Shown: positions 11,088 through 56,612 of the stretch, piece after piece | Position numbering within the stretch: position 1 is the first letter of the stretch | Layout of the letters: every line of letters starts with the position of its first letter | DNA from: an uncultured virus (IMG/VR IMGVR_UViG_3300050821_007680) | Taxonomy: Duplodnaviria; Heunggongvirae; Uroviricota; Caudoviricetes | DNA: 64,000 nucleotides | Reading direction: 5' to 3' (one strand) | IMG/VR virus record: IMGVR_UViG_3300050821_007680 | Program-made: the position numbers and the translations under genes | Notes under the pieces: generated by a model | Database searches by the model: none | What the model was told of the DNA's origin: nothing | Seen by the model: the letters and a program-made list of their open reading frames with translations, nothing else

Positions 11088-11359
11088 AATTTATAACTGA
11101 GCAGCCCGAACGACAATCCCTTACCGATACCGAAAAGCTAATGTCAAACCGCCTGTCAACACAAGTAACATTTTTGCCGGGCAGCTATGATAAGCGTTTT
11201 TGTTCAGGATTGCCTTTAAATGGCAAATATACTGAACGGCAAATTGCCTATATTCATAAATGTTTTCATAAATACCGTAGACAGATTAAGGATTACGAAA
11301 CCATAAAACAACGACTTGCTATGAATGAAAAGCTTATGCCTAATTTTAGAGGGGAATGA
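11084..11359 (+). CDS. hypothetical protein
   Basis: TFLPGSYDKRF...KYRRQI; coupled overlaps. Confidence 0.7.
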   Translation: MKFITEQPERQSLTDTEKLMSNRLSTQVTFLPGSYDKRFCSGLPLNGKYTERQIAYIHKCFHKYRRQIKDYETIKQRLAMNEKLMPNFRGE

Positions 11360-11925
11360 GCTATAGTATTATTTACGCCGATCCGCCGTGGGCGTATAAA
11401 GTTTGGAGTAAAAAGGGAAACGGAAGATCCGCCGAGTCTCATTATTTAACGATGAAAGATGTGTCTATTATTGATATTTCCAAAATAGCAAATAAGAATT
11501 GCGTATTATTTATGTGGGCAACATTCCCATGTTTACAGGAGGCTATTGAATTAGGTAAGAAGTGGGGTTTTACCTATAAAACAGTTGCCTTTACCTGGGT
11601 GAAGAAAAATAAAAAAAATAAGGCTAATTTCTTTGGAATGGGGTATTACACTCGTGCAAATGCAGAAATATGCCTGTTATTTACAAAAGGCAAGCCATTA
11701 AAAAGAATGTCAAAATCGGTTGCTCAAATTATCGAACACCCCGTTTGTGCGCATTCAGCAAAGCCAGGTATCGCACGTAAAAGAATTGTTGAATTATTTG
11801 GAGATATACCACGCATAGAACTATTTGCACGTACTCGTAATGACTTATTTGGAAATTACGAATATGACGGTTGGGATATTTTTGGCAATGAAGCCGCGGG
11901 TAATAATGTAATTATTTTGCAATGA
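11356..11925 (+). CDS. MT-A70-family DNA N6-adenine methyltransferase
   Basis: IYADPPW, LFMWAT, FTWVK, GYYTRANAE, HSAKP, IELFAR. Confidence 0.93.
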   Translation: MSYSIIYADPPWAYKVWSKKGNGRSAESHYLTMKDVSIIDISKIANKNCVLFMWATFPCLQEAIELGKKWGFTYKTVAFTWVKKNKKNKANFFGMGYYTRANAEICLLFTKGKPLKRMSKSVAQIIEHPVCAHSAKPGIARKRIVELFGDIPRIELFARTRNDLFGNYEYDGWDIFGNEAAGNNVIILQ

Positions 11926-12131: not shown

Positions 12132-13174
12132 AAGATAGTATATTCACTAAAGATAAAGGTACTATTTTTAGCTGCTTTGCTTGTGGAGGTGGCTCTACGA
12201 TGGGTTATAAGCTTGCTGGATTTGACGTTATTGGATGCAATGAGATCGACCCCAAAATGATGAAATGTTATATCGAAAATCACCATCCGAAATACTCGTT
12301 TTTAGAAGATATAAGAACTTTTAAGGCACGTAAAGATTTGCCGGAAGAATTATACCACCTGGATATATTGGATGGATCTCCGCCATGCAGTTCGTTTTCA
12401 ATAGCCGGTAATCGTGAAAAAGACTGGGGGAAAGAAAAGGTTTTTTCAGAAGGGCAAAAACTACAGGTTTTAGATACTTTGTTTTTTGACTTTATAGATT
12501 TGGCGAAAGAACTACAGCCCAAAATTGTAATTGCCGAAAACGTACAAGGGTTATTGCAAGGAAATGCCTTTGCCTATGTTCATAAAATTTACAGGCAATT
12601 TGAAGATGCAGGATATATTGTACAACACTTTTTATTGGATGCTTCAAAAATGGGTGTACCACAAAGGCGTAAACGCGTGTTCTTTATTTGCTTGCGGAAG
12701 GATTTATTGCCTAAATTGGCAACCTTTGATTTGTTTGGAAAAATACCTAAGTTGGATTTGATGTTTAGGGAAAAAATGATCCCAACATCTGAATTTAACG
12801 ATTATTTAGGTATGCCAATTACAGAACATGCTTTAAAAGCATGGAATAGCAGAAAGCCGCATCATACAAAAATTAGTCAATCCAAAAAAGATGCAGGAAT
12901 GAAACAAAACGATTTTAACTGTAAATTCATTAAGTCAAAACAACCACATTCAACATTACTAGCAAATAGGTATCATTCTCATATTCATTATGATAAACCT
13001 ATTTATATCAGTAGAAATGAATTTCTACTTGGTTCATCATTTCCCTTAGATTATAAAATGGTGAATTTGCCATTTTATTATGTTCCCGGCATGTCAGTAC
13101 CCCCTGTCATGATTGCCCAAATAGCAACACGTATTTACGATCAATGGTTATGCTTGTTAAAAGATGAAAAATAG
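12110..13174 (+). CDS. DNA cytosine-5 methyltransferase (start uncertain; motif I lies upstream of the first ATG at 12200)
   Basis: In-frame FSCFACGGGSTMG, GSPPC, AENV, GVPQRRKRVF, GMSVPP. Confidence 0.88.
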   Translation: MDAHWILKDSIFTKDKGTIFSCFACGGGSTMGYKLAGFDVIGCNEIDPKMMKCYIENHHPKYSFLEDIRTFKARKDLPEELYHLDILDGSPPCSSFSIAGNREKDWGKEKVFSEGQKLQVLDTLFFDFIDLAKELQPKIVIAENVQGLLQGNAFAYVHKIYRQFEDAGYIVQHFLLDASKMGVPQRRKRVFFICLRKDLLPKLATFDLFGKIPKLDLMFREKMIPTSEFNDYLGMPITEHALKAWNSRKPHHTKISQSKKDAGMKQNDFNCKFIKSKQPHSTLLANRYHSHIHYDKPIYISRNEFLLGSSFPLDYKMVNLPFYYVPGMSVPPVMIAQIATRIYDQWLCLLKDEK

Positions 13175-13253
13175 TTATGAACAGATGAGGGAAATTCGGT
13201 AAGTTTTATTATATTTAAAACCCGGTTCAGCGCACGCTTGCCAGCTCATTTTG

Positions 13254-13367
13254 AAGTGACTTTTTGTATTGGATAAAAAAAGTTACTTTTGTGTTAGTTA
13301 AAAAGATTTTAACAAATCCCGGCAGGTTTAAGGTTGCTCCAATCAACCACCTGTACCGGGCTTTTTT
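13254..13367 (+). promoter_or_regulatory. Two-hairpin leader RNA with complementary loops, ending in a terminator-like hairpin
   Basis: Loop ATTGGA (13268-73) is the reverse complement of loop TCCAAT (13338-43); T6 tail. Confidence 0.7.
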
Positions 13368-13426
13368 ATGCGAACTCGGCGGAATCAAACCGCTGTCGGC
13401 GGCAATTAAAACCCTACTATTCATAT

Positions 13427-14398
13427 ATGTCCCTATCCGATCTTAAATTCGTAAAACAGCAAGCCAATATAGTTGAGGTTATCGGCCATTTTGTTCCAAT
13501 AAAAAAGAAGGGAGTTGAATATGTCGGCATGTCGCCATTTTCAAATGAACGCACACCTTCTTTTTATGTCAATCCAGTTAAGAACATATTTAAATGCTTT
13601 TCAAGCGGAGAAAGTGGGGATGTTATAGATTTTGTTGTGAAACATAAGAGTATATCACAGCGAGAGGCTATACAATGGATACGGGATTTTTACAACATGC
13701 CGCCGAAAGATAATGAATGGCGATTTATCCCGCCGCCGCCGCGTCCTATCTCGTATATTCCCTATAGCACCTTTTCAAAAACAATAGATACCGGGCATAA
13801 AAATTATTTCCGCGATTGGTTGGGTCGCGTCCTTGACCCGGTTGCGGCCTGGGGTTTATTGCAAGCATACAAGGTTGGAACATCTAAGCATTGGCCCGGT
13901 GCCTGTATATTTTGGCAGGTTGATTTACAAGGCCGGATAAGATCGGGTAAGATTATGGTTTATAATCCCGAAACGGGCAAGCGCATCCGCTCTCCCGAAC
14001 CGTTAATTACATGGGTGCATAAGGCAGCTAAATTGCAAAATTTTAATCTTTCAATTTGCCTTTTTGGTGAACACCTGCTAAATACGTCCCCGCCAGCTAA
14101 AACGGTTTGTATTGTAGAGTCTGAAAAATCAGCAATCCTTGCAGCTGCTATTTATCCAAAATTTATTTGGCTTGCTTCGGGATCATTAACTAATTTATCT
14201 TTTGAGCGGTGTAAATGTCTTTCCGGACGAAATATTAGGCTTTATCCTGACGTTGGCGGTGAAATTCAATGGGAAGAAAAAAGAAAGCAGTTAGCCGAAC
14301 TCATACCTAATGCTTCTTGGGAGTTGCACCCATTAACCGGCAACACATTCCCAAAGGGATATGATTTATGTGATTACATTTTAGATAATTGTTTATGA
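13427..14398 (+). CDS. DNA primase (CHC2-type Zn-finger domain plus DUF6371/TOPRIM-like domain)
   Basis: SPFSNERTPSF..FKCFSSGESGD, FWQVD..G.IRSGKIM.Y, LFGEHL, VESEKSA, YPD, DLCD. Confidence 0.88.
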   Translation: MSLSDLKFVKQQANIVEVIGHFVPIKKKGVEYVGMSPFSNERTPSFYVNPVKNIFKCFSSGESGDVIDFVVKHKSISQREAIQWIRDFYNMPPKDNEWRFIPPPPRPISYIPYSTFSKTIDTGHKNYFRDWLGRVLDPVAAWGLLQAYKVGTSKHWPGACIFWQVDLQGRIRSGKIMVYNPETGKRIRSPEPLITWVHKAAKLQNFNLSICLFGEHLLNTSPPAKTVCIVESEKSAILAAAIYPKFIWLASGSLTNLSFERCKCLSGRNIRLYPDVGGEIQWEEKRKQLAELIPNASWELHPLTGNTFPKGYDLCDYILDNCL

Positions 14399-15837
14399 CG
14401 GCACAAACACTGGGAATAACACCATATCCCGATCAAATTGAATTTACGAATAAGATAATATCTAAATTAGCGGACGGTTATATGAGGGTTTGCGCACAGT
14501 TGGCCACTGGAGGCGGCAAGACGGTAGTTTTTTCTTATCTAATTTCCCGTTACATCGCAAAGTCACCCTCCGCAAAAATATGCATACTTGTTCATCGCAC
14601 CGAATTGGAGGCACAAACAAAGCGTATATTGCGTGAATTTGGGTTAAATGGCGTTCGCGTTGAAATGGTCGAAACTTTTAATAATCAATTAAAAAAACAT
14701 GCCGAATCAATGAGGTATGATATGTTGATAGTAGACGAATGCCATATAGCTAATCACTTTAAAGTTATAACTCATTTTAAGGAATTACAACCCGAATGCC
14801 TGGTGCTGGGGTTTTCGGCCACGCCAATTGCCGCATCAAAGAAAACGCCGCTTAAATCGTTTTTTCAAACCATTGTAGTTGGAACTGAAATTAACAAGTT
14901 AATTTCTATGAAGCGGCTTTGCCCCGCTATACACTATTCGCCAACTACCGAACCTATCGGTAAAATCGGCATGTCTGGCGGCGATTATAATCTCGCTGCT
15001 ATGGGGATTGAGTTTTCAAAGCCAAGATTGGTTGAGGCTATTGTCGATGCCTATAGCAAATATGCGGCTGGTAAAAAATGCCTGATATTTAATACAACTA
15101 TTGAGCATTCAAATTTGGTTAATGAGGCATTTAGAAACGCCGGGTATACGAATACACGCAGCATTGACAGTAAATCGGTTACCGATGAAATACGCTCAGA
15201 AACATTTCGCTGGCTCCGTACTACGCCTGGTGCTATTCTATCTAACGTTGGAATAGCCACAACAGGCTTTGACGACCCGTCAATTGAAGCGATTATTTTT
15301 AATCGTAAAACGAAGTCATTGCCGCTTTGGCTACAATGTTGTGGCCGGGGTGCGCGGGTAAGTCCTGATCCTAATATTGATAAGCCTTACTTTCTCATTA
15401 TTGATTTAGGTGATAATATTGCCGGTGAGGGTTTTGGCCATTGGAATGAGCGTCACGATTGGGAACAATATTTCTTTCATCCAGATACAGCCCGCGAAGG
15501 GGTTGCGCCAATGAAAAAATGTCCTGAATGTGATGCGCGGATATATATGAGCTCAACTGAATGCCGTTGGTGCGGCCATTTAATGCCGCGAAAGACTGTT
15601 TATACTGATATGGTATTATCACTCTCTATTTTGCCCGAAAAAGGTATTAAGCGCAATAGCCACGATGCGCTAATGAAGGCTATTGAATTTGCCGCTGAAC
15701 AGGTTCGAAAACAACGGGTGACGTATAATGAAAAGCGGGAATTAATGTTTTATGCTTTTCAGGAACTTTATAAGCGTAGTAGTTTTGAGCCACGCGATCA
15801 TATTATTTCTCACTTGGTGTCTGTTTATGGAAAATAA
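14395..15837 (+). CDS. Superfamily 2 DExH helicase (RadD/YejH-like) with a C-terminal Zn ribbon
   Basis: TGGGKT, DECH, SATP, TTGFD, QCCGRGAR, CPEC..CRWC. Confidence 0.92.
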   Translation: MTAQTLGITPYPDQIEFTNKIISKLADGYMRVCAQLATGGGKTVVFSYLISRYIAKSPSAKICILVHRTELEAQTKRILREFGLNGVRVEMVETFNNQLKKHAESMRYDMLIVDECHIANHFKVITHFKELQPECLVLGFSATPIAASKKTPLKSFFQTIVVGTEINKLISMKRLCPAIHYSPTTEPIGKIGMSGGDYNLAAMGIEFSKPRLVEAIVDAYSKYAAGKKCLIFNTTIEHSNLVNEAFRNAGYTNTRSIDSKSVTDEIRSETFRWLRTTPGAILSNVGIATTGFDDPSIEAIIFNRKTKSLPLWLQCCGRGARVSPDPNIDKPYFLIIDLGDNIAGEGFGHWNERHDWEQYFFHPDTAREGVAPMKKCPECDARIYMSSTECRWCGHLMPRKTVYTDMVLSLSILPEKGIKRNSHDALMKAIEFAAEQVRKQRVTYNEKRELMFYAFQELYKRSSFEPRDHIISHLVSVYGK

Positions 15838-15858
15838 TTTTGTATATTTAAATGCAAA

Positions 15859-15959
15859 AAACATATCAAATCTATGCCGTAGGACGCGTATATTTGATGT
15901 GTTTAGGTTTATAATTAAATTGCCCGGTCGCCCGTCCTACTTTAGCGCCGGGCTTTTTT
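15859..15959 (+). promoter_or_regulatory. Two-hairpin leader RNA with complementary loops, ending in a terminator-like hairpin
   Basis: Loop GTAGGAC (15879-85) is the reverse complement of loop GTCCTAC (15934-40); T6 tail. Confidence 0.75.
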
Positions 15960-15998
15960 ACCTCTAATAATTATGTGTGAACCTAATGTTATTGTTTT

Positions 15999-17459
15999 AT
16001 GAGTCAAAAGTTAACAATTGCTCATATTGCGGCCGAGCGTCAGTTTAAACATACAACTTTATACAAGTCAAAAGCTAATGGCGGATTTGAATGGGATTTA
16101 CCCAATCTTCATTTCTTTTATACAGAACGGGGATATTTTATTTATCGAACATCTATTGACCGATTCGTTCCGATAAGAGTAATTGATAATATAGTTAAGA
16201 TAGCGGGTAAAAAGGAGTTGGTCGATGAAATTCTTAATTTCCTTTTAAATATTGATGAATGCCCCCCACATATACACCAATTTGCATTAAAAGAAATATC
16301 AAAAGCTACTTCCGATGATTTTCTTATCACATTGCCTGAAAAACAGGTAGAATTTAGAAAGGATCGGAAAGACGCTATACAACTTTATTTTCAAAATTGT
16401 ATAGTAAAAATAACAGCAGACAAAGTCACCGAGCACCCATATACCGATCTCAATGGCTTTATTTGGGAAAGTCAGATATTGCCAAGAGAGTATAAAGCCC
16501 AGCAAATAAATCCATCCGCTAATTTTTCAACATTTATTTCCAATATAGCAAATAATGATCAATCCAGGGTTAATGCGCTTTGTGCTGCTTTTGGTTTTTA
16601 TCTTCATAATTATAAAGATGCTGATTATTGCCCGGCCGTCATTTTAAACGATGAAATTATATCGGATAACCCGGAGGGGGGCACCGGTAAGAGTTTGTTT
16701 TTTGAAGCCATATCATATTTTATAAAAACTGAAATTTTTGACGGTGAACTTTTTTCTTTTGAGAAGGGATTTTTATATCAACGAATTAAGCCCGATACCA
16801 GATTGGTTTTTTTCGATGATACTAAAAAAGGATTTAAATTTGAAAAACTTAAGAGCTTTCTAACTGGAGGAGTAACAACTGAAAAAAAGGGAAAAGATGA
16901 AATTTACATTCCATTTATAGATTCCCCAAAAGTTGGAATAGCGACGAATTACGCCATTAATAATTCTGGTAACTCATTAGAACGTCGAAGCCTCGAGCTT
17001 GAAATAAGTCAATATTATAATAAAAAACGTAAACCTAAACACGAATTCGGGCATATGATGTTTACTGGCTGGGACCAGGCAGGGAAAGAGTGGATACAAT
17101 TTGATAATTATGCTATTCGCTGTTGTCAGTTATTTCTTTCGCATGGTCTTATTGAGCAGGTTTTAATAAACTTACCAGAAAAAAAATTACACTCACAAAC
17201 AAACTCTCAATTTCTTGAATTCATGGAGGATTTTAAATTTGAATATGAAATTTCAAAAAAAGGGATGCTGGATCAGTTTTTAGCTTATTGCCCAAAATAT
17301 AAAAACGCAGATTGGTTGACAGTTAATTTTTTCACTAAGTGGGTAACGATTTATTGTGACTTTCATAAAATATCACTTGACACTACCGGCCGTGACAAAT
17401 CAGGAAGCATCAGGGTATATAAGTTTGATAACTTCCCCATTACTGTCCCGGTTTTCTGA
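15999..17459 (+). CDS. Replicative P-loop helicase (SF3/D5-like)
   Basis: GGTGKS Walker A, VFFDD Walker B, IATN, SLERR. Confidence 0.85.
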   Translation: MSQKLTIAHIAAERQFKHTTLYKSKANGGFEWDLPNLHFFYTERGYFIYRTSIDRFVPIRVIDNIVKIAGKKELVDEILNFLLNIDECPPHIHQFALKEISKATSDDFLITLPEKQVEFRKDRKDAIQLYFQNCIVKITADKVTEHPYTDLNGFIWESQILPREYKAQQINPSANFSTFISNIANNDQSRVNALCAAFGFYLHNYKDADYCPAVILNDEIISDNPEGGTGKSLFFEAISYFIKTEIFDGELFSFEKGFLYQRIKPDTRLVFFDDTKKGFKFEKLKSFLTGGVTTEKKGKDEIYIPFIDSPKVGIATNYAINNSGNSLERRSLELEISQYYNKKRKPKHEFGHMMFTGWDQAGKEWIQFDNYAIRCCQLFLSHGLIEQVLINLPEKKLHSQTNSQFLEFMEDFKFEYEISKKGMLDQFLAYCPKYKNADWLTVNFFTKWVTIYCDFHKISLDTTGRDKSGSIRVYKFDNFPITVPVF

Positions 17460-17745
17460 CAAACTTATATCGATAAAATATTTGTCAGAAGGTTTGTCAG
17501 AAACTTTGTCAGAAGATTTTATGCATCAGAATGATTGAAACGCAATAAATTAACCTATCTGACAAAATTGACAAAAATAAAGCACTATTATTTATATAAT
17601 ATACTTTTTTTGCGCGAATGATATAGAATATTTGTCAGAAATGTCAGAAACGCTATAACTAACTGGATATTAACAACTTACTTCTGACAAACTTCTCTGA
17701 CAAATTTGGAGTTACCTATAAAGTTTGTCAGAAAAAATGTCAGAA
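17454..17745. repeat. Iteron array, probable replication origin
   Basis: 11 copies of the TGTCAGA core (mostly TTTGTCAGAA) in both orientations around an AT-rich tract, directly after the helicase gene. Confidence 0.85.
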
Positions 17746-20312: not shown

Positions 20313-20395
20313 GACAGGGGAAGAAAAGTTCAGATATATTTTTCTATACGGATTATTATAGTTATGTTTGGATGCCGGTGCGTAATCGGCTATAT

Positions 20396-20593
20396 ATGAA
20401 AGAAAAGTTATCATTGGGTGACCAGTTAAAAAGGGCGCGTGAGGCGGCGGGAATGACACAAATAGAGTTGTTTGAGAAGTCACGGGTGTCGCTGTTCACT
20501 ATTTCGCAGTTAGAGAATAACCACACAAAGAATGTAAGCACACACACCTTGCGCGGGTTGCAGTATGCTTTGGGTATAGTATTTGAGATATGA
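20396..20593 (+). CDS. XRE-family HTH regulator
   Basis: LKRAREAAGMTQIEL..SRVS..TISQLEN; TATGTTTG promoter at 20363-70. Confidence 0.88.
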   Translation: MKEKLSLGDQLKRAREAAGMTQIELFEKSRVSLFTISQLENNHTKNVSTHTLRGLQYALGIVFEI

Positions 20594-20778: not shown

Positions 20779-20902
20779 AAAACCGCCGCCAATTTTGGCT
20801 ATCCATACGACCGGTAGGGAAGTGTACATTGAACCGCAAATATAATTCGACACTTATATTTGGCTGGTCTGTTTGTTTGAGGGTGTTTGGGAGGGATGTG
20901 TT

Positions 20903-21640
20903 ATGAGCCTTATCATCCAGTGTATCTACGCCACAAAGGACAATAAAAAGCTTCCTATCGTAAAACAGTGTATTAAGTCGCTCATGGCGACGGTGGATTT
21001 GAATAAACACCGCTGGGTAATTGTGAATAACTCGTGTGACATGGAGACGCAGGGGTATTTAGATGCGCTTTCACATCACATGAATATCACTATTCACCAC
21101 TTGCCGGAAAACGTCGGTACGGCGCGGGGGATAAATATCGGGTTGCGGACAAGGCAGCCGGGCGAAATGTGCATCAAATGCGACGATGACCTGACATGGT
21201 CGGTATCCGGGTGGGTTGAACAACTCGAAAAGTATTGCAAGGGTAATATTGGTATTTTAGGATTGAAGCGTGACGATATTTGGCAACGGACCGACCATGA
21301 GAATTTGAATTACCGGACTAAAATGGAAGGGAAGTTGGAGATATGTCCCGATATTATGGGAACGTGCACGGCTTATAACCCGGCGATGCTGGATAAAGTA
21401 GGACTGCTTACGCAGCCGGGTTTGTACGGATTTGACGATACAATATTCTCTGTTCGTTCAATAGCGGCGGGTTTTCGGAATGCCTTTTTGCCGCACATAA
21501 AAATTACTAATCTTGATAAGGGTGGCACAGAATACACCGAGTGGAAGAAGTGGGAGGCCGGGCGACGATTGGTTGAGGCAGGGGAATATATGGAAATGAT
21601 TAAAAACGGGATAATAAGTTATTTTTATGATGGAGATTAG
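20903..21640 (+). CDS. Glycosyltransferase family 2-like (GT-A)
   Basis: VNNS.D, ENVGTARGINIG, KCDDD, YGFDD..FS.R..AAG. Confidence 0.88.
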   Translation: MSLIIQCIYATKDNKKLPIVKQCIKSLMATVDLNKHRWVIVNNSCDMETQGYLDALSHHMNITIHHLPENVGTARGINIGLRTRQPGEMCIKCDDDLTWSVSGWVEQLEKYCKGNIGILGLKRDDIWQRTDHENLNYRTKMEGKLEICPDIMGTCTAYNPAMLDKVGLLTQPGLYGFDDTIFSVRSIAAGFRNAFLPHIKITNLDKGGTEYTEWKKWEAGRRLVEAGEYMEMIKNGIISYFYDGD

Positions 21641-22289
21641 TAAAACGACAACTATATTAGCTTATACAGCAGAACCCAAAAGGTATCTTATCGAAGGAGA
21701 TTCGGGCGAATACGAATTTTTAACCGAAGCGGTCGAACTGAGTAAAGATGTGCCCGGTATGTGCATAGAAATTGGCTTGCGTCGTGGATTGGGAACTAAA
21801 ACCATTATTGATGCAGTGCGCCAATATTGCCCTGCTAAAATAATTGTTGCAGTCGACCCATACGGATCAATATTGTATAAACCCCGTGACCACATGCCTG
21901 AATGCCGATTAGATTATACCAACCAGATGAAAGCTGAAACACTGTCGGCGATATGGGCGTATGTGGCAGAAAACCCGGTCAGGTTTGATTATTATCCCAT
22001 GACTGACGCGGAGTATTTTGAAAGGTTTTGGGATTGCGTGCCACTATACGATGTTTTTACAAGTGAAGGTAATAAATATTCAGTAGTTCACCTTGACGGC
22101 CCGCATGGTTTAACCGAAGTAAACCATGAAATTGATTGGTTTGCAGAAAGAATGTTGCCGGGCTCTATCCTGGTAATTGATGATATTACGCCGGATTTTA
22201 TACCAATCGAAAAGGTAGAAGAACACATGGGCGATAGGTTTGAGTTAGTTAAGAAGGGGATTAAAAAGGGAATATGGAGAAGAAAGTAG
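21627..22289 (+). CDS. Class I SAM-dependent methyltransferase (Methyltransf_24/TylF-like)
   Basis: IEIGLRRG.GT, VDPY, VHLDGPH, PGSILVIDD. Confidence 0.85.
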   Translation: MMEISKTTTILAYTAEPKRYLIEGDSGEYEFLTEAVELSKDVPGMCIEIGLRRGLGTKTIIDAVRQYCPAKIIVAVDPYGSILYKPRDHMPECRLDYTNQMKAETLSAIWAYVAENPVRFDYYPMTDAEYFERFWDCVPLYDVFTSEGNKYSVVHLDGPHGLTEVNHEIDWFAERMLPGSILVIDDITPDFIPIEKVEEHMGDRFELVKKGIKKGIWRRK

Positions 22290-22392
22290 AAAATAAGTCC
22301 GCATGGCATAAGTTTAATAGGTATCTTAATGACCATATTGGCGTTATAATGGTTTGGTATTTTTTGGTTCAGTTAATACACTTCATTTTAAA

Positions 22393-23043
22393 ATGCTTAA
22401 AGTAATCACCGTAATTTCAAATACCGAAGAACCCGGATTTAAACTATTAGGCGAATCGTTAGTAAAACATGGTTGGGATACTACCGCATTAGCTGTTCAA
22501 TGGCGTGGATTTGGAACAAAACTTATTGCAATTTACCGATACTTACAAGACAATTTAGAAATAGACCGTTTCATTTTTTGCGACGGACACGATGTTGTGG
22601 CGCTCGGCCCTCCAGTTGAATTTGAAAGAAATTTGGAACACCCTGATAAAATGTTAGTATCAGCAGAGCGCGGATGCTGGCCACCGACAATGCAACAATA
22701 TGCAAGTTATTACGAACCATTAGAAGCACACGGATGGAACTATGTCAACAGTGGGCTGTATTATACCCCTACAAGTATTTTTATGGCTATGATGGAGCGT
22801 AACATGCCAAAATATGAATCTGACGATCAGGAATGGCTGGCAATGAACTTTTTATTTAATGACGAGGCTGAAATACGAATGGACAGGAACTGTAACGTTT
22901 TTCAATCATATAGTTTCGTTCAGGATGATGATTATATTTACCGGGAAGGAGTTTTGGTAAATGCAAAAACCTGTACAACACCATGCTTTGTGCATGGGAA
23001 TGGTCGCACAAACATGGAAAAAGTTTATAATTTAATAAAATGA
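22393..23043 (+). CDS. Glycosyltransferase of the PLOD/lysyl-hydroxylase GT-domain type
   Basis: FCDGHDV, SAERGCWP, YVNSGLY, DDQ, D.NC.VFQ, HGNG. Confidence 0.82.
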   Translation: MLKVITVISNTEEPGFKLLGESLVKHGWDTTALAVQWRGFGTKLIAIYRYLQDNLEIDRFIFCDGHDVVALGPPVEFERNLEHPDKMLVSAERGCWPPTMQQYASYYEPLEAHGWNYVNSGLYYTPTSIFMAMMERNMPKYESDDQEWLAMNFLFNDEAEIRMDRNCNVFQSYSFVQDDDYIYREGVLVNAKTCTTPCFVHGNGRTNMEKVYNLIK

Positions 23044-23744
23044 CCTTAGAAACTTTAAAATCAGAGTGGCATGATACCGAGGAATATCATAAGCACATAA
23101 ATGAGCTATTCGCTCAGTTGGTTGACGCCGACCCGGAATTAAAAGCACATCGGGATTTTGTGCAAAACAATGTATTCGGCTTTGGGGAGCGATCATTTTG
23201 GTGGTTGTGGAAGCTTATTTTTGAGGGACTGCCCGACAACGCCAGGATGCTTGAAATAGGGCTATTTAAGGGTGCGACGGTATCTCTATGGAGATTGTTA
23301 AGCCCGACCGCAGATATCGCCGCCATAAGCCCCATGGATGGCGCCGGGCTTGAATGGAAAGACGATGACTATCGGCAGCATGTAAAAACCATACACGAGC
23401 GCTTTAATCAATCTTATCCCAAAATTTTCGAGGGATTGTCTACCGACAGAGGTATAAAGGCGATGTTTGGTATGGAATATCGCTACGGTTTGGATTTGCT
23501 ATACATTGACGGCTCACATGAGTATGCTGATGTAAAGTTAGATTTTGGATGGTATGCACCGTATGTAAAATCGGGTGGCTTTTTGGTTGTTGACGACTGC
23601 TGCTGTGACTTACATGAACCATTTGGTTACTTTCAAGGGATATCTGATGTTCAAAAAGCATTCGACGAATATATGTTAGAGCATAGTGACAAGTGGGAAT
23701 TTGTATTTAATGTAGTTCACCTCCGGGTAATGAGAAAACTATGA
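23040..23744 (+). CDS. Class I SAM-dependent methyltransferase (Methyltransf_24)
   Basis: LEIGLFKG, LYIDGSHEY..V..D, GGFLVVDD. Confidence 0.87.
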   Translation: MTLETLKSEWHDTEEYHKHINELFAQLVDADPELKAHRDFVQNNVFGFGERSFWWLWKLIFEGLPDNARMLEIGLFKGATVSLWRLLSPTADIAAISPMDGAGLEWKDDDYRQHVKTIHERFNQSYPKIFEGLSTDRGIKAMFGMEYRYGLDLLYIDGSHEYADVKLDFGWYAPYVKSGGFLVVDDCCCDLHEPFGYFQGISDVQKAFDEYMLEHSDKWEFVFNVVHLRVMRKL

Positions 23745-24712
23745 GCATAAAACGCATAATATATTTCGATCATTGGCAAAGCGCAACAGAATACTACCGA
23801 TTAATGCCACTGGACTATATCACAAACGAGTCGTTTACCATTACAAGGTCAACGGAACGGGAGATACAGAGCCACCTGCTAAACCGATACGACGTAGTTA
23901 TTATTTCCAGGCCCTCATCGGAAGCCCATTTGAACCTTATAAGGCTGGCTAAAGACTTGCATATGAAGGTAATTGGCGATTATGATGATGATACCCTGCA
24001 TGTGCCCGAAACCAACCCAATGTATGGCACTTATGAGAACGATAAGCGACACACATTGAAATGTTTAGCGTTATTGGATGAGATTTGGGTAGCTACAGAG
24101 GGTATAAAGCAGTCATTCCGATTATTCAATAAGAATATTCATGTGATACCAAATTCGCATAATGACACGGTGTTCCCGGTGGAGCGCAAGATGCCATTCG
24201 GGGCAAAGAAGCGCATCATGTGGCGTGGCGGCGGAAGTCATATTGGAGATATTTATCAGCCCGGCACGGCAGAATGGATCGTGAAAACAATAAATAGCAA
24301 TAAGAAGTGGGATTTTTACTGGCTTGGTCAGAAGTTTGAATGGATAGAGTACAGGGTTAAGCAGGGCAACTTCTTCCATAACCCAGGTGGCAGCACGGTA
24401 CAGTTTTACAAAATGATACACGAAATGAACCCGCAGGTATTTTGGTATCCATTGACGGATAATTTGTTCAACCGCAGCAAGAGTGCGTGTTCGTGGCTGG
24501 AGGCAACCTACTCGGGTGCGGCGTATTTCGGAAAGGTGGCGTTCCCGGAATTTCAAAAGCCGGGCATAAAACAATTGGCCGAACTGCCGTATATGCTTAA
24601 ACACCCCTACGAATTGGAAAAAATGAACACTGAAAGTTGGGAATTTATTTCCGATGAATTACTTTTGAGTAAGATAAATTTATTAAGAGAACAAAGATTA
24701 TTGGCTATATGA
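23741..24712 (+). CDS. Glycosyltransferase, GT-B/GT4-like
   Basis: YYRL.P, DYDDD, VIPN, WRGGGSH..D, FNRSKS..WLEA. Confidence 0.8.
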   Translation: MSIKRIIYFDHWQSATEYYRLMPLDYITNESFTITRSTEREIQSHLLNRYDVVIISRPSSEAHLNLIRLAKDLHMKVIGDYDDDTLHVPETNPMYGTYENDKRHTLKCLALLDEIWVATEGIKQSFRLFNKNIHVIPNSHNDTVFPVERKMPFGAKKRIMWRGGGSHIGDIYQPGTAEWIVKTINSNKKWDFYWLGQKFEWIEYRVKQGNFFHNPGGSTVQFYKMIHEMNPQVFWYPLTDNLFNRSKSACSWLEATYSGAAYFGKVAFPEFQKPGIKQLAELPYMLKHPYELEKMNTESWEFISDELLLSKINLLREQRLLAI

Positions 24713-25647
24713 CACCATCCACCGGAAATATCCTTGTAAAATTCGACCATGACAGGTCATCAACCCTTGTAAAACAAGACAACGGGCTATTTGTTCCCGA
24801 GCGTTACGTAATAGAGGAGGGCGACGAAGACGCAGATACCGCATGGGGTGTAACCACAGACCGTAAGATGATAAACCCACAGGTGATTGATATTCTTTCG
24901 GGAGAACATAAGAGCAAACGGGCATTTGTACATTATGGTGCTTTTGAGGTGTGTAAATGGGTTGATGAAGAATCGGCGGTAATACCCGAAAAAATGATAC
25001 TATTCTTTGTTGACCCGATACAATGCGTTTCGGGGACATATTTAGGGGAAGAAGTATTTGGGGAACTGCCAAAAACGGCCAGCGGTATATATCTTACCCC
25101 GCAACTGGAAACAAAAGAGGGGGTGAAGGTGTGCATCACGCACGTGCCAGATAACGCACACCCAGTGGTACAGGTCGGTACGGTGGTTATAACGGTTGAC
25201 GCGTTTCAATATGACCTGATATACGAAGGGAAGAAATATATTAAAGTAGACCAGCGCGAAATTGTGGGAGTTGAAACAAGCGATGGATATGTACCCGTTG
25301 GCAAAACTATTCTGGTCGAATACCTGCCGGATGCCGCATTGGCAGAACGGGTCGCCGAAAATGATAAACGCCGGGCACAGCGCGATTATATTGATAAGCA
25401 CTTTATTCATATATCGGAAGCCTACACCAAGGGGCTTGACCCGGCGTACCTTGATGTACCGGAGCCAAAAACAACGTATGCCAGGGTGCTGTCGGTTGGT
25501 GAGGATGTGCAGCAGGTGGAAACAGGAGATAAGGTGCTTGTTCAGCGTAATTACGGGTGTTTATTGCCAAATAAGCAATGGATCATCAATGCAGATATAG
25601 CGTTGGCTGTAATTAAAGAGAATATTCTGATACCCGTTGGGGAGTAA
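24709..25647 (+). CDS. Co-chaperonin-like protein with three tandem GroES-like domains
   Basis: P..GNILVK..GLFVP; KTASGIYL..VQVG.VV..EGKKY..EIVGV; PVGKTILVE..VLSVGEDV.QVETGDKVL. Confidence 0.7.
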   Translation: MTPSTGNILVKFDHDRSSTLVKQDNGLFVPERYVIEEGDEDADTAWGVTTDRKMINPQVIDILSGEHKSKRAFVHYGAFEVCKWVDEESAVIPEKMILFFVDPIQCVSGTYLGEEVFGELPKTASGIYLTPQLETKEGVKVCITHVPDNAHPVVQVGTVVITVDAFQYDLIYEGKKYIKVDQREIVGVETSDGYVPVGKTILVEYLPDAALAERVAENDKRRAQRDYIDKHFIHISEAYTKGLDPAYLDVPEPKTTYARVLSVGEDVQQVETGDKVLVQRNYGCLLPNKQWIINADIALAVIKENILIPVGE

Positions 25648-25649
25648 CT

Positions 25650-26339
25650 ATGCGCCGCAAATTTGAAACATACCCAGAATTAATGGCAGAGTACAGGAGG
25701 CTCAAATGTGAACTCGGCGCGATAAAAAATAAAAACGAAAGGTTAAAAAAGAAATACGAAATAATAGAACAAAAGGCGGAGTCATTTGACAACATTCATA
25801 ACGAGTATGTTTTTATAGACAAAAAACCGGATTATTTTTTTTCTTTTTCCGGGCACGCGCTGTTCAGGCAGTTTTATCTTCGCAATGGACTGACTGCCGC
25901 CCAAGCTGAATTATTAATAATTATCAGCTATAAGGGGGTGTTTTTGAGAGGTGATTTTAGGTTTTATAATAGGGATTACTTTAAGCTATCTGTTATAAAA
26001 TTAATAGAAACCCTAATTGAGCAGCGTTACGTTATGAATATCATGGTTCCGGGCAAAGCGCACAAAAAAAGGAATGGGTATGTGCTGACGCAAAAAGGAA
26101 AAGACCTTGAGGCTGATTACGAACAGTACTATGATAAAAAAATGGATGAGTTAAGAAGTGGGCGCATCACACCCGCTAATTTTCAGGATGGGGCGTATTT
26201 CAGGAAGGTTTTTGTTAGCAGGTACGAAAGGCGCATAGAGCAGGGCGGCGGTATGCTTATAAGGGGCGGTATCATGACAGGATGGAAGGAGTCGCCACCG
26301 ATTTGGAAGCATGCGGATGAAATGGATAAAGGAGAATAA
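25650..26339 (+). CDS. Winged-helix (MarR-like) domain protein
   Basis: GLTAAQAELL...LIEQRYV...YVLTQKGK. Confidence 0.55.
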   Translation: MRRKFETYPELMAEYRRLKCELGAIKNKNERLKKKYEIIEQKAESFDNIHNEYVFIDKKPDYFFSFSGHALFRQFYLRNGLTAAQAELLIIISYKGVFLRGDFRFYNRDYFKLSVIKLIETLIEQRYVMNIMVPGKAHKKRNGYVLTQKGKDLEADYEQYYDKKMDELRSGRITPANFQDGAYFRKVFVSRYERRIEQGGGMLIRGGIMTGWKESPPIWKHADEMDKGE

Positions 26340-55156: not shown

Positions 55157-55975
55157 ATGCCTACGTCAGCACAAGTCCAAACCAGCCTATTAACCGCACA
55201 ACTCAAAGCGGCCAACCTTACGCTGACAAACATTCTTGCTTTACAGGCGGGCGCACTGAGTGCGAACTGGAAGTATATATTTAAGGCGCAAAGGGGCATA
55301 AATATTATTCAGAACAAATATAATCAGGGCGACCTATCATCTGTTACCTTTAAAACCGCCTATTCGTGTTTAACATCGTTTATAGGTAATTATACAGGCG
55401 GCACCATTGACCCTAACGCGCAAAATCCGGGTACTGTTATCAATATTACAAATCCCGGTGCTACGCCGGTACTGGTAGAATTAAATTTCCCAAAAGGTTC
55501 ACCAAACCCAATTGTTATATCAAGCTGGCAGGCGATATACTCCCCAATTTTAGGCAACTTCCCATCAATCCAAGTGTCTACACTCATACCGGACGCTATA
55601 AGCACGTTTAAGACACTTGTTCCCGGAAGTGGTGGTATTAACGGAACATATTACGTTAACCTTGCTGGCGGCAGCGGAAGTGGCGCCAGCGCCTTAATAA
55701 CCATTGCTGGTAATGTTGTGACATCCGTAACCCTTGATAAAACCGGTTCAGCCTACGCCGTAAACGATGTCCTCACCGGCACATTCGGCAGCATATCAGG
55801 TTTCAGCATCACTGTAGCGTCGATAGGGGCGACATACACGCCGTTTACAGCGGGTGCGGTGAAGGTGTATGACCAGGCGACTTCCTCGTTGCTCCAGTAT
55901 CTGTATATTGATGATCCTGATATAGCTAACCCCCTCCTTACCGGCGATGCTATTCGGGTGTTGATGAAGCCGTAG
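55157..55975 (+). CDS. Putative structural protein with one Gly-rich inserted domain
   Basis: GGSGSGASALITIAGNVVTSVT..GSAY..NDVL, same pattern as in 35964-37382. Confidence 0.65.
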   Translation: MPTSAQVQTSLLTAQLKAANLTLTNILALQAGALSANWKYIFKAQRGINIIQNKYNQGDLSSVTFKTAYSCLTSFIGNYTGGTIDPNAQNPGTVINITNPGATPVLVELNFPKGSPNPIVISSWQAIYSPILGNFPSIQVSTLIPDAISTFKTLVPGSGGINGTYYVNLAGGSGSGASALITIAGNVVTSVTLDKTGSAYAVNDVLTGTFGSISGFSITVASIGATYTPFTAGAVKVYDQATSSLLQYLYIDDPDIANPLLTGDAIRVLMKP

Positions 55976-56612
55976 AAAAGAGAGTTGGAATTTCTGTAAT
56001 ATTACCCCATTGTTCCGCCATGGCATTTGCGATACCTTGAAATGTTTTACTTCTTTCTTTAGCGCTATCCCATGCCTTAAATATCGGCAATTCTGATTTT
56101 TTACGTGTCCCGTTTTTTAATAACCCCCCTTGTGTTGAATTACTTGTATAATGATATGTTGGCTCGACAATATTGGTAGGCATTAATAGAGGTAGCCCTT
56201 TTAACCACAAGCAAGTTCTCTTTTTAAACGGGTCGCCAAATTGGTATGGGTTTATTATCTGATCCGGTTTTCTATAAACCCTTGACATTATACCCGTCGG
56301 ATTTTCAATTGCTATTTTACTGCATGTATTATTTACGAATAACATAAAGAAATCAATCGCTGATTGCTGTCTGCCGTCTAATTGTTTTTGTTTCCAACCG
56401 GGCGCGCCGGCTGCTGATAAATGCGTACATGGCGGGAAAGCTATAATCATACCCCATTGCTGTTTCAACAACTCGGTTACATCTTTTTGTAGGTGCCATT
56501 CGGGGTGACCGCCACTACACGGCAATATATCACATGAATATGCTTCATGGCCCCGCTTCCTAAACTCAATAGTCACGACCTGACTTTCTTCACAAGCTAT
56601 TAATATTTTCAT
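55950..56612 (-). CDS. Phage DNA cytosine methyltransferase-like protein
   Basis: ILIACEESQ, FPPCTHL, IENP, KRTCLWLKGLP, RSKTF.GIA.AMAEQW. Confidence 0.85.
   Translation of the reverse strand: MKILIACEESQVVTIEFRKRGHEAYSCDILPCSGGHPEWHLQKDVTELLKQQWGMIIAFPPCTHLSAAGAPGWKQKQLDGRQQSAIDFFMLFVNNTCSKIAIENPTGIMSRVYRKPDQIINPYQFGDPFKKRTCLWLKGLPLLMPTNIVEPTYHYTSNSTQGGLLKNGTRKKSELPIFKAWDSAKERSKTFQGIANAMAEQWGNITEIPTLFSTASSTPE

Follow-up and report, generated by a model that had tools for sequence, protein, structure and literature searches.

A covarying family of kissing-loop leader RNAs in Bacteroidota phages and a probable transcription valve upstream of a replicative helicase gene

Why would a phage carry two hairpins with complementary loops in the ~105 bases 5' of a predicted DNA-unwinding gene, and is this complementarity more than coincidence? 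The locus that raises this question lies in a window of 64,000 bases (bases 1-64000 of a virus record that measures 69,243 bases in full). A cluster on the + strand of this window encodes methyltransferases, a CHC2/DUF6371 primase, an SF2 helicase, a DUF5906 helicase and a nuclease-like protein, and is followed by the terminase and portal genes. The immediate surroundings of the leader are as follows:

14389..15837, + strand: upstream co-directional gene for an SF2 (ResIII/DEAD) helicase, from domain matches
15999..17459, + strand: downstream gene for a DUF5906 / D5-like (P4-family) helicase of 486 aa (Pfam DUF5906, E 1e-6)
17455..17744, no strand assigned: iteron-like array, whose 11 TGTCAGA copies occur in both orientations and surround an AT-rich core, adjoining the 3' end of the DUF5906 gene

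The DUF5906 helicase also gave a weak TIGR01613 match (E 0.002), and motifs that we take to be Walker A/B-like are visible in its translation; a PDB sequence search returned zero matches, and its predicted structure was poor (mean pLDDT 44). The array contains 11 of the 12 TGTCAGA copies of the whole window (3.25 expected), and in 12 of 14 relatives the helicase gene is likewise followed by an array of at least 6 copies of a 7-mer, each with its own, different 7-mer. We consider the array at 17455-17744 a likely replication origin, a reading that supports the label "replicative helicase" for the DUF5906 gene. No integrase was recognised in the subset of the window's ORFs that was scanned.

The initial annotation had described the leader itself as a short sequence at 15843-50, two hairpins (A and B, here P1 and P3) and a T6 run about 40 nt before the ATG, and all of its coordinates and pairings turned out to be exact. 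The parts are:

15843..15850, + strand: predicted Bacteroidota -7 promoter box, variant TATATTTA, from sequence, with a predicted +1 near 15855
15859..15904, + strand: hairpin P1, 18 bp plus one C-U mismatch, two G-U pairs, 8-nt loop
15879..15885, + strand: kiss strand A, GTAGGAC, following the family pattern GU-N-R-N-R-N
15889..15896, + strand: internal consensus -7 box TATATTTG in the 3' arm of P1, from sequence
15905..15921, + strand: linker of 17 nt with AGGTT; the small hairpin P2, present in most family members, is weak here
15922..15953, + strand: terminator-like hairpin P3, with a 6-bp GC base, a bulge, a 3-bp upper stem and a 13-nt loop (15932-44)
15934..15940, + strand: kiss strand B, GTCCTAC, the exact complement of GTAGGAC
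15954..15959, + strand: U-tract T6, predicted termination site, from sequence

The variant box was also observed at the equivalent place in the loci L004, L009 and L011, and a second box with the consensus TAnnTTTG is found at 15835-42, where it overlaps the stop codon of the upstream gene. The loop of P1 reads CGTAGGAC (15878-85), and the perfect 7-bp pairing of GTAGGAC with GTCCTAC is indeed present in the sequence, with a kiss duplex energy of -13.9. The helicase ATG at 15999 lies 39 nt past T6 and 45 nt past P3. Folding favoured the + strand, as had been proposed from its two G-U pairs: it reached -36.5 kcal/mol (z -3.95), which was equalled by 0 of 200 shuffles, versus -31.3 kcal/mol (z -2.63) for the - strand, and folding from the predicted +1 onward gave a z of -4.59. 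In its layout the leader comprises two hairpins that a loop-loop pseudoknot connects, and the second of them, on the 3' side, has the pattern of an intrinsic terminator, a GC-rich hairpin followed by a U-tract. A combined sigma-70 and strict terminator scan left the helicase leader unflagged; such a scan misses P3 because its loop exceeds 8 nt. The linker segment AGGTTTATAAT (15905-15914) can in addition pair with 15973-15987, 3' of the U-tract, and could enclose P3 in a read-through RNA just before the ATG.

One account of these observations would be an ordinary terminator with a chance hairpin upstream, for which it speaks that the GCC...GGC-T6 arrangement is common to many terminators. The chance level was determined in several ways. 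When loop B was shuffled, 774 of 200000 shuffles (0.4%) gave a match of at least 7 nt with loop A, and this length was reached by 1 of 841 loops of non-member terminators. A loop-blind pattern, which specified only the -7 box and the terminator ends, gave back 120 of about 1100 viral stretches, with 106 distinct matches, 83 of which had just one hairpin B at -8 kcal/mol or below. A loop-to-loop match of at least 7 nt was present in 30 of these 83 leaders, with 0.7 expected from non-cognate pairings, although these are not 30 independent events because the members are related. A generic detector was run over 906 terminator-like hairpins. In the second viral scan, for which no box was specified, 26 of 183 hairpins had such a match (0.5 expected); the first, looser scan gave only 3 of 154 (0.8 expected), a result that would suit the chance explanation. 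Among cellular loci from a genome collection, a small sample, the count was 1 of 294 (1.1 expected), and the family model R2 found 0 of 5 in the cellular records searched, also a small sample, with divergent members able to escape R2. We conclude that the loop complementarity in the helicase leader is not chance; the shuffles, the loop-blind scans and the covariation described below refute that explanation, to which we give practically no weight.

Covariation had been claimed initially from a comparison within the window, where the loop pair of a matching leader before the primase gene was taken to differ naturally from that of the helicase leader. This sister leader is:

13253..13368, + strand: atypical leader of the CHC2/DUF6371 primase gene, whose start is likely 13427; fold z -3.15

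The fold of this copy is real, yet the copy is a weak and atypical sister of the helicase leader. Its loop match spans only 6 bp (ATTGGA, 13268-73, with TCCAAT, 13338-43), its kiss duplex energy is -6.0 versus -13.9, and the family model scores it at 27.8 bits, versus 43.0 bits for the helicase leader, while placing it out of register. Since the primase leader is atypical, the two copies in the window do not by themselves amount to covariation, and we rejected this part of the argument. The terminator hairpin of the primase leader is branched, and the 3' arm of its first hairpin is overlaid by a consensus -7 box (13284-91), as in the helicase leader.

Compensatory change was instead supplied by relatives from other genomes. 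In the closest one, L011, the P3 stem is identical and the kiss reads GTGGAAA/TTTCCAC, with three of the pairs changed in a compensatory way. The kiss was 100% paired in the 18 rows of the seed alignment (A3), and 3 of its 7 pairs carried two-sided changes. With an E limit of 1, a model that was built without kiss information (R1) matched nothing in the window except the helicase and primase leaders, and this kiss-free model recovered the new members L264 and L269, both with perfect loop matches. In the 47-row alignment made with the kiss-free model (A5), pairing of the kiss reached 98.6% and 5 of its 7 pairs showed two-sided changes, values far above those of shuffled and slid controls; the rows of A5 include one antisense false hit and a few misaligned ones and were mostly picked for having a kiss, so that A5 demonstrates compensation and not its frequency. 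In the same alignment P1 was 92% paired and showed two-sided changes in each of its pairs (12 of 12), and the P3 base helix was 99% paired. The first two kiss pairs are nearly invariant (G-C in 38 of 39 and U-A in 39 of 40), purines are fixed at two further positions, and positions 3-7 vary with compensation. R2, which was trained without the window and with L011, found the helicase leader at 43 bits (E 6e-7). Judged by these sequence comparisons, the helicase leader is one member of a widespread, covarying family of phage leader RNAs.

The claim that such a leader precedes the replicative helicase of a Bacteroidota-type phage was supported by the covariation, the upstream box and cultured phages, while its exact position is less general. 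Relatives of the helicase or the primase were present at 24 loci, 16 of which had a kissing leader in the replication cluster (13 by script after reading of its matches, two of which were only 6 nt, and 3 by model), and none was seen in the other 8, several of which are short. A leader between the two helicase genes was found in the window and in its positional orthologue L004, but this position is not conserved in relatives: elsewhere the leader precedes small ORFs or primase-like genes, and in several relatives the two helicase genes are directly coupled, with the leader further upstream or not found.

To describe the family we collected 87 candidates with matches of at least 6 nt and removed 22 by eye as chance-like or irregular, which left 65 members. 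Their layout from 5' to 3' is a Bacteroidota -7 box, P1, a short linker, the terminator-like P3, a U-tract and the ATG, with median values of 12 bp for P1, 8 nt for both loops, 20 nt for the linker, 10 bp for P3 and 6 U. The distance from P1 start to P3 end is 81-91 nt in the middle half of members, and a U-tract of 5-9 U is present in 65 of 65, in part a selection effect. The loops, mostly of 8 nt, are purine/pyrimidine-patterned, and GU is located in the first loop in 57 of 65 members; these 57 GU-starting kisses comprise 24 different cores, the commonest of which occurs in 18. In a raw count, 58 of the 65 members have a relaxed -7 box no more than 30 nt upstream of P1, and among the 26 members from the box-free scan 23 have one at this distance, 17 of them at 5-7 nt. 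As the Flavobacterium -7 box spans -12 to -5 and has a TAnnTTGY variant (PMC9723704), P1 would begin at or near the RNA 5' end. Reversed loop polarity, with the pyrimidine strand in the first loop and the purine strand in the terminator loop, was seen in L522:2870-2975 (phage phi13:2) and in L263 near 2235.

An ORF in the same direction starts within 45 nt in 64 of the 65 members, and a co-directional upstream ORF was found in 32 of 39 testable ones. The downstream ORF is replication-linked in 33 of 64: 26 are initiator-like (16 Lin1244_N, some below the curated cut-off, 6 DUF6291, 3 HTH_36 and 1 DUF1376) and 7 encode a primase, primase-polymerase or helicase. Relatives of the Lin1244_N and DUF6291 proteins are annotated as replication proteins in phage records. 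The remaining ORFs comprise 8 of other kinds and 23 without Pfam match, and these 31 of 64 genes that are not recognisably replication genes count against the proposed valve. Extra kissing leaders in the same genomes before small, nuclease-like or membrane-protein-like genes (L014:2190-2290, L555, L556 and L564) indicate that use of the element extends beyond replication genes. For cultured phages, 7 of 8 fetched regions were inspected by eye, of which 5 show the element and 2 do not. The carriers, tooticki6-1, 11b, Harreka_1, elemoA_7-9A and phi13:2, are phages of Flavobacterium, Olleya and Cellulophaga, by which the family is assigned to Bacteroidota phages; the present record presumably has a host among the Bacteroidota as well, as judged from the family hosts and the promoter boxes. 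With R2, scores of the cultured members were weak (21 bits at best) and genome-wide searches missed them; they were identified by eye. A blastn search of one member against cultured phages gave no relevant match.

From these features of sequence, fold, covariation, family and gene context, we infer how transcription, termination, the direction of the switch and its trigger might work. The leader likely acts as an RNA valve that sets transcription into DNA-replication genes. In the reading that we prefer, with a probability of roughly 55%, the kiss would form on the growing RNA, keep the terminator open and let the polymerase enter the helicase gene, by analogy with the guanidine-IV riboswitch. 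The RNA would begin near 15855, or read-through would arrive from the upstream SF2 helicase gene; P1 would fold first and present GUAGGAC, and GUCCUAC would emerge from the polymerase a few bases ahead of the pause at the U-tract. If loop A captured GUCCUAC, the 17-nt linker would leave too little slack for easy zipping of the GC base of P3, and transcription would go on, while if P3 zipped first, an RNA of ~105 nt would be released. The timing of the emergence of loop B depends on the length of the exit channel of RNA polymerase; loop B ends 13 nt before the U-tract, and should therefore clear the polymerase shortly before the termination decision. Across the family the distance from kiss end to first U is 7-16 nt, mostly 9-11 (13 in the helicase leader). 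Since the kiss is a perfect helix of 7-8 bp, a small ligand should be unnecessary, and the read-through fraction would most likely depend on kinetics or on something that competes for the loops.

A rough geometric estimate was made for the assumed conflict between kiss and terminator. In the helicase leader a straight P1-kiss-P3 stack would have to be spanned over ~98 Å, while the linker can reach ~100 Å at most, a ratio of about 1.0. The median ratio for 59 of the 65 members (six with mis-extended or atypical P1 were left out) was 0.69 with P3 closed versus 0.30 with P3 open, in the same crude straight-stack estimate. Kissing complexes bend and an AU-rich P1 base can fray, and because the family median is below 1, a full kiss and a full P3 may still coexist. 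Longer stems did not go together with longer linkers (rho -0.43, in part an artefact of P1 extension), which counts against the steric conflict.

The model for this mechanism, guanidine-IV (GGAM-1), and its variant Gd4v share with the helicase leader the two hairpins, the loop-loop pseudoknot, the role of the second hairpin as intrinsic terminator and a size of about 95 nt (PMC7736828, PMC11611296, PMC9788692). The kiss into the terminator loop competes in guanidine-IV with closure of the terminator stem, the linker being shortened, and termination is prevented (PMC11611296, PMC7736828); an identical opposition of kiss to termination is what we propose for the helicase leader. In contrast, guanidine-IV as there described has many near-invariant bases and a short match (in the L. 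lactis construct, ACCG in the first loop versus GGU in the terminator hairpin), depends on guanidine, and stands before sugE/MATE/GNAT genes, mainly in Firmicutes. The present family has a perfect, variable match of 7-9 bp with GU usually in the first loop, a long P1, and phage replication genes downstream. The many strongly conserved bases within and around a short pseudoknot with GU in the second loop, as in guanidine-IV/Gd4v, are absent from it, and a sugE, MATE, GNAT or transaminase gene follows in 0 of the 41 cases where the ORF had a Pfam match (23 of 64 had none). By this comparison the helicase leader does not appear to be a guanidine-IV member, and likely works like its antiterminator.

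The shared topology also leaves room for a riboswitch or a protein-responsive switch, in which the kiss beats the terminator only with the help of a small molecule or of a protein from host or phage. Rom/Rop-like proteins bind kissing complexes, and a shape-reading protein would be suited by fixed geometry with variable letters, as would a ligand or protein by the near-invariance of the first two kiss pairs and the two other fixed purines. Few unpaired bases are conserved, however, and the kiss is a perfect helix of 7-9 bp. In a cobalamin kiss it is a bulge that confers ligand dependence (PMC10907184), and the contrast with a perfect helix speaks against the need for a ligand. There are also members whose loop polarity is reversed or whose kiss lacks the GU start, and no phage protein was common to all 22 element-bearing genomes in an all-against-all blastp comparison (3292 ORFs, 26 genomes, some partial), in which small divergent proteins could escape and G013, counted as element-free, later showed a probable element. 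We consider such a switch quite unlikely.

A different, protein-free trigger would be a copy-number sensor: the released leader RNA, or in this clade a ~60-nt RNA with loop B alone that starts from the internal box in P1, would accumulate with genome copies, occupy loop A of freshly transcribed leaders with the same barcode, block the kiss and shut off a helicase acting at the origin, so that the barcode would decide which leaders or co-infecting phages hear each other. We regard this as a tentative extension, with the odds clearly against it. One of five two-copy genomes has identical barcodes, and a single barcode accounts for 18 of 57, which points faintly in its direction. As for triggers in general, the search found no second target site for the present barcode. 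It also found no conserved antisense box, a consensus antisense box being present in 7 of 65 members at scattered places, and this result, together with that on shared phage proteins, counts against the preferred reading. Barcodes differ in 4 of 5 two-copy genomes (the window, G011, G041 and G045) and are identical in G031; selection for distinct barcodes within one genome, which was considered separately, is unsupported.

Two further readings do without a valve. Firstly, the terminator could be constitutive, with the kiss compacting the released ~105-nt RNA (or an oligomer formed by intermolecular kissing) into a functional non-coding RNA, and the gene read by leak or general antitermination. 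A promoter-like box of its own and a U-tract make the element a self-contained unit of near-constant size that moves among unrelated genes, and its patterned 8-nt loops resemble stable kissing complexes. Nevertheless, a co-oriented ATG almost always follows the unit closely, and the unit occurs preferentially ahead of replication genes; both facts are in keeping with action in cis, and we think this reading unlikely. Secondly, the kissed fold might act post-transcriptionally as a 5'-end stabiliser or translation element, with the U-tract belonging to an A/U-rich Bacteroidota initiation region. P1 begins at the predicted 5' end, the ATG mostly lies 11-19 nt past P3, and the U-rich tract, 9-45 nt ahead of the ATG, could serve translation initiation instead. 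This is improbable in our view, as a GC-rich P3 base followed by 5-9 U is the pattern of an intrinsic terminator and the ATG is here 45 nt from P3.

The internal box offers yet another possibility. If only the box at 15889 were used in this copy, the two loops would never be on one RNA, and their match would be either a relic or a device that works in trans. Unlike the variant box upstream, the internal one fits the consensus perfectly, and it occurs in the same register in 6 of 65 members, compared with 4, 3 and 0 of 65 in control windows. A scan of the whole collection gave 93 test matches, of which 3 were internal-box elements, all already in the member set, so it added no cases; 0 of 104 control matches proved to be an element on inspection. 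A start only from TATATTTG is very unlikely because 59 of 65 members, the positional orthologue L004 included, keep the loop match without an internal box; the co-directional upstream gene also speaks against it. The box recurs only in a small clade, where it may possibly serve as a second promoter for a ~60-nt RNA carrying only loop B. In phage P4 (CI), phage P1 (c4) and plasmid pT181, antisense attenuation by a separate or processed RNA acts on replication or immunity genes, and the likeness to our family is a loop-mediated RNA-RNA pairing that controls transcription into such genes. The helicase leader appears to differ from them, as no conserved antisense promoter, second target site or Rfam match was found for it, although a processed or non-consensus RNA may be involved; c4 is listed as RF01695 (PMC2864571). 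A general model after P1 c4 or P4 CI, with hairpin A as promoter spacer plus an internal promoter, was dropped because most members have the box upstream of P1, and survives as a clade-limited option only.

Rfam 15 gave no match on the element in the window at E up to 1, and none at gathering score on 20 + 9 member loci (best 30.9 bits versus 59). Two members scored weakly, at 30.9 and 29.4 bits versus a gathering score of 59, with the trpB motif RF04312, which like our family combines a long hairpin with a terminator; no member matches it at gathering level. A terminator loop proposed to pair in a pseudoknot with the hairpin before it, blocking termination, also features in the weak riboswitch candidate fhsA (PMC11109978). 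As described there, fhsA and trpB differ from our family by their association with metabolic genes of Leptotrichia or Firmicutes/Fusobacteria and, for trpB, by a proposed antiterminator in the P1 shoulder (PMC11109978). The zipper-type attenuator of pLS20 is likewise a mobile-element leader with an upstream stem-loop complementary to the terminator, but its pairing lengthens a long stem by strand exchange, whereas the helicase leader matches at loop tips only (PMC13401043). Closest by gene context are four candidate structured RNAs of Fremin et al. 2023, DNAVirus_4859, _187, _704 and _4940, from aquatic, mostly freshwater, phages and 49-106 nt long, which lie within 25 bp of HTH_36, Phage_rep_O, DUF4373, DUF1376 or VirE_N-PriCT genes (PMC10690425). 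These gene kinds are the same as in our family, notably for DNAVirus_4859 (106 nt); compared by their table entries, the four are anonymous and automated, with no kiss or mechanism described and all marked "no" for terminator. The family may already sit unnamed in that catalogue (PMC10690425). The literature searched, in which few subscription papers were covered, held no description of this element.

The timing of replication in Bacteroidota phages is little known, and the recurrence of one RNA element ahead of initiators, primases and helicases that are unrelated suggests a common control at the RNA level. If the proposed mechanism is true, the leader would be a second natural case of a kiss into a terminator loop as antiterminator, apparently without a ligand pocket, and its ~100 nt with swappable 7-letter loops might provide a kit of orthogonal transcription valves for Bacteroidota engineering.

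Some further observations concern the rest of the window. Four DNA methyltransferase genes are present (1749-2351, 11356-11925, 12200-13174 and 55950-56612), two of the C5 type, one MT-A70 and one other. A small HTH transcription regulator is encoded at 20372-20593, and has relatives in five other element-bearing genomes. Directly 5' of the terminase, a cluster of glycosyltransferase and methyltransferase genes (20873-26339) suggests DNA or virion modification. It is preceded at 20837-20862 by TATATTTG boxes placed back-to-back on opposite strands as a near-palindrome, probably a divergent promoter pair.
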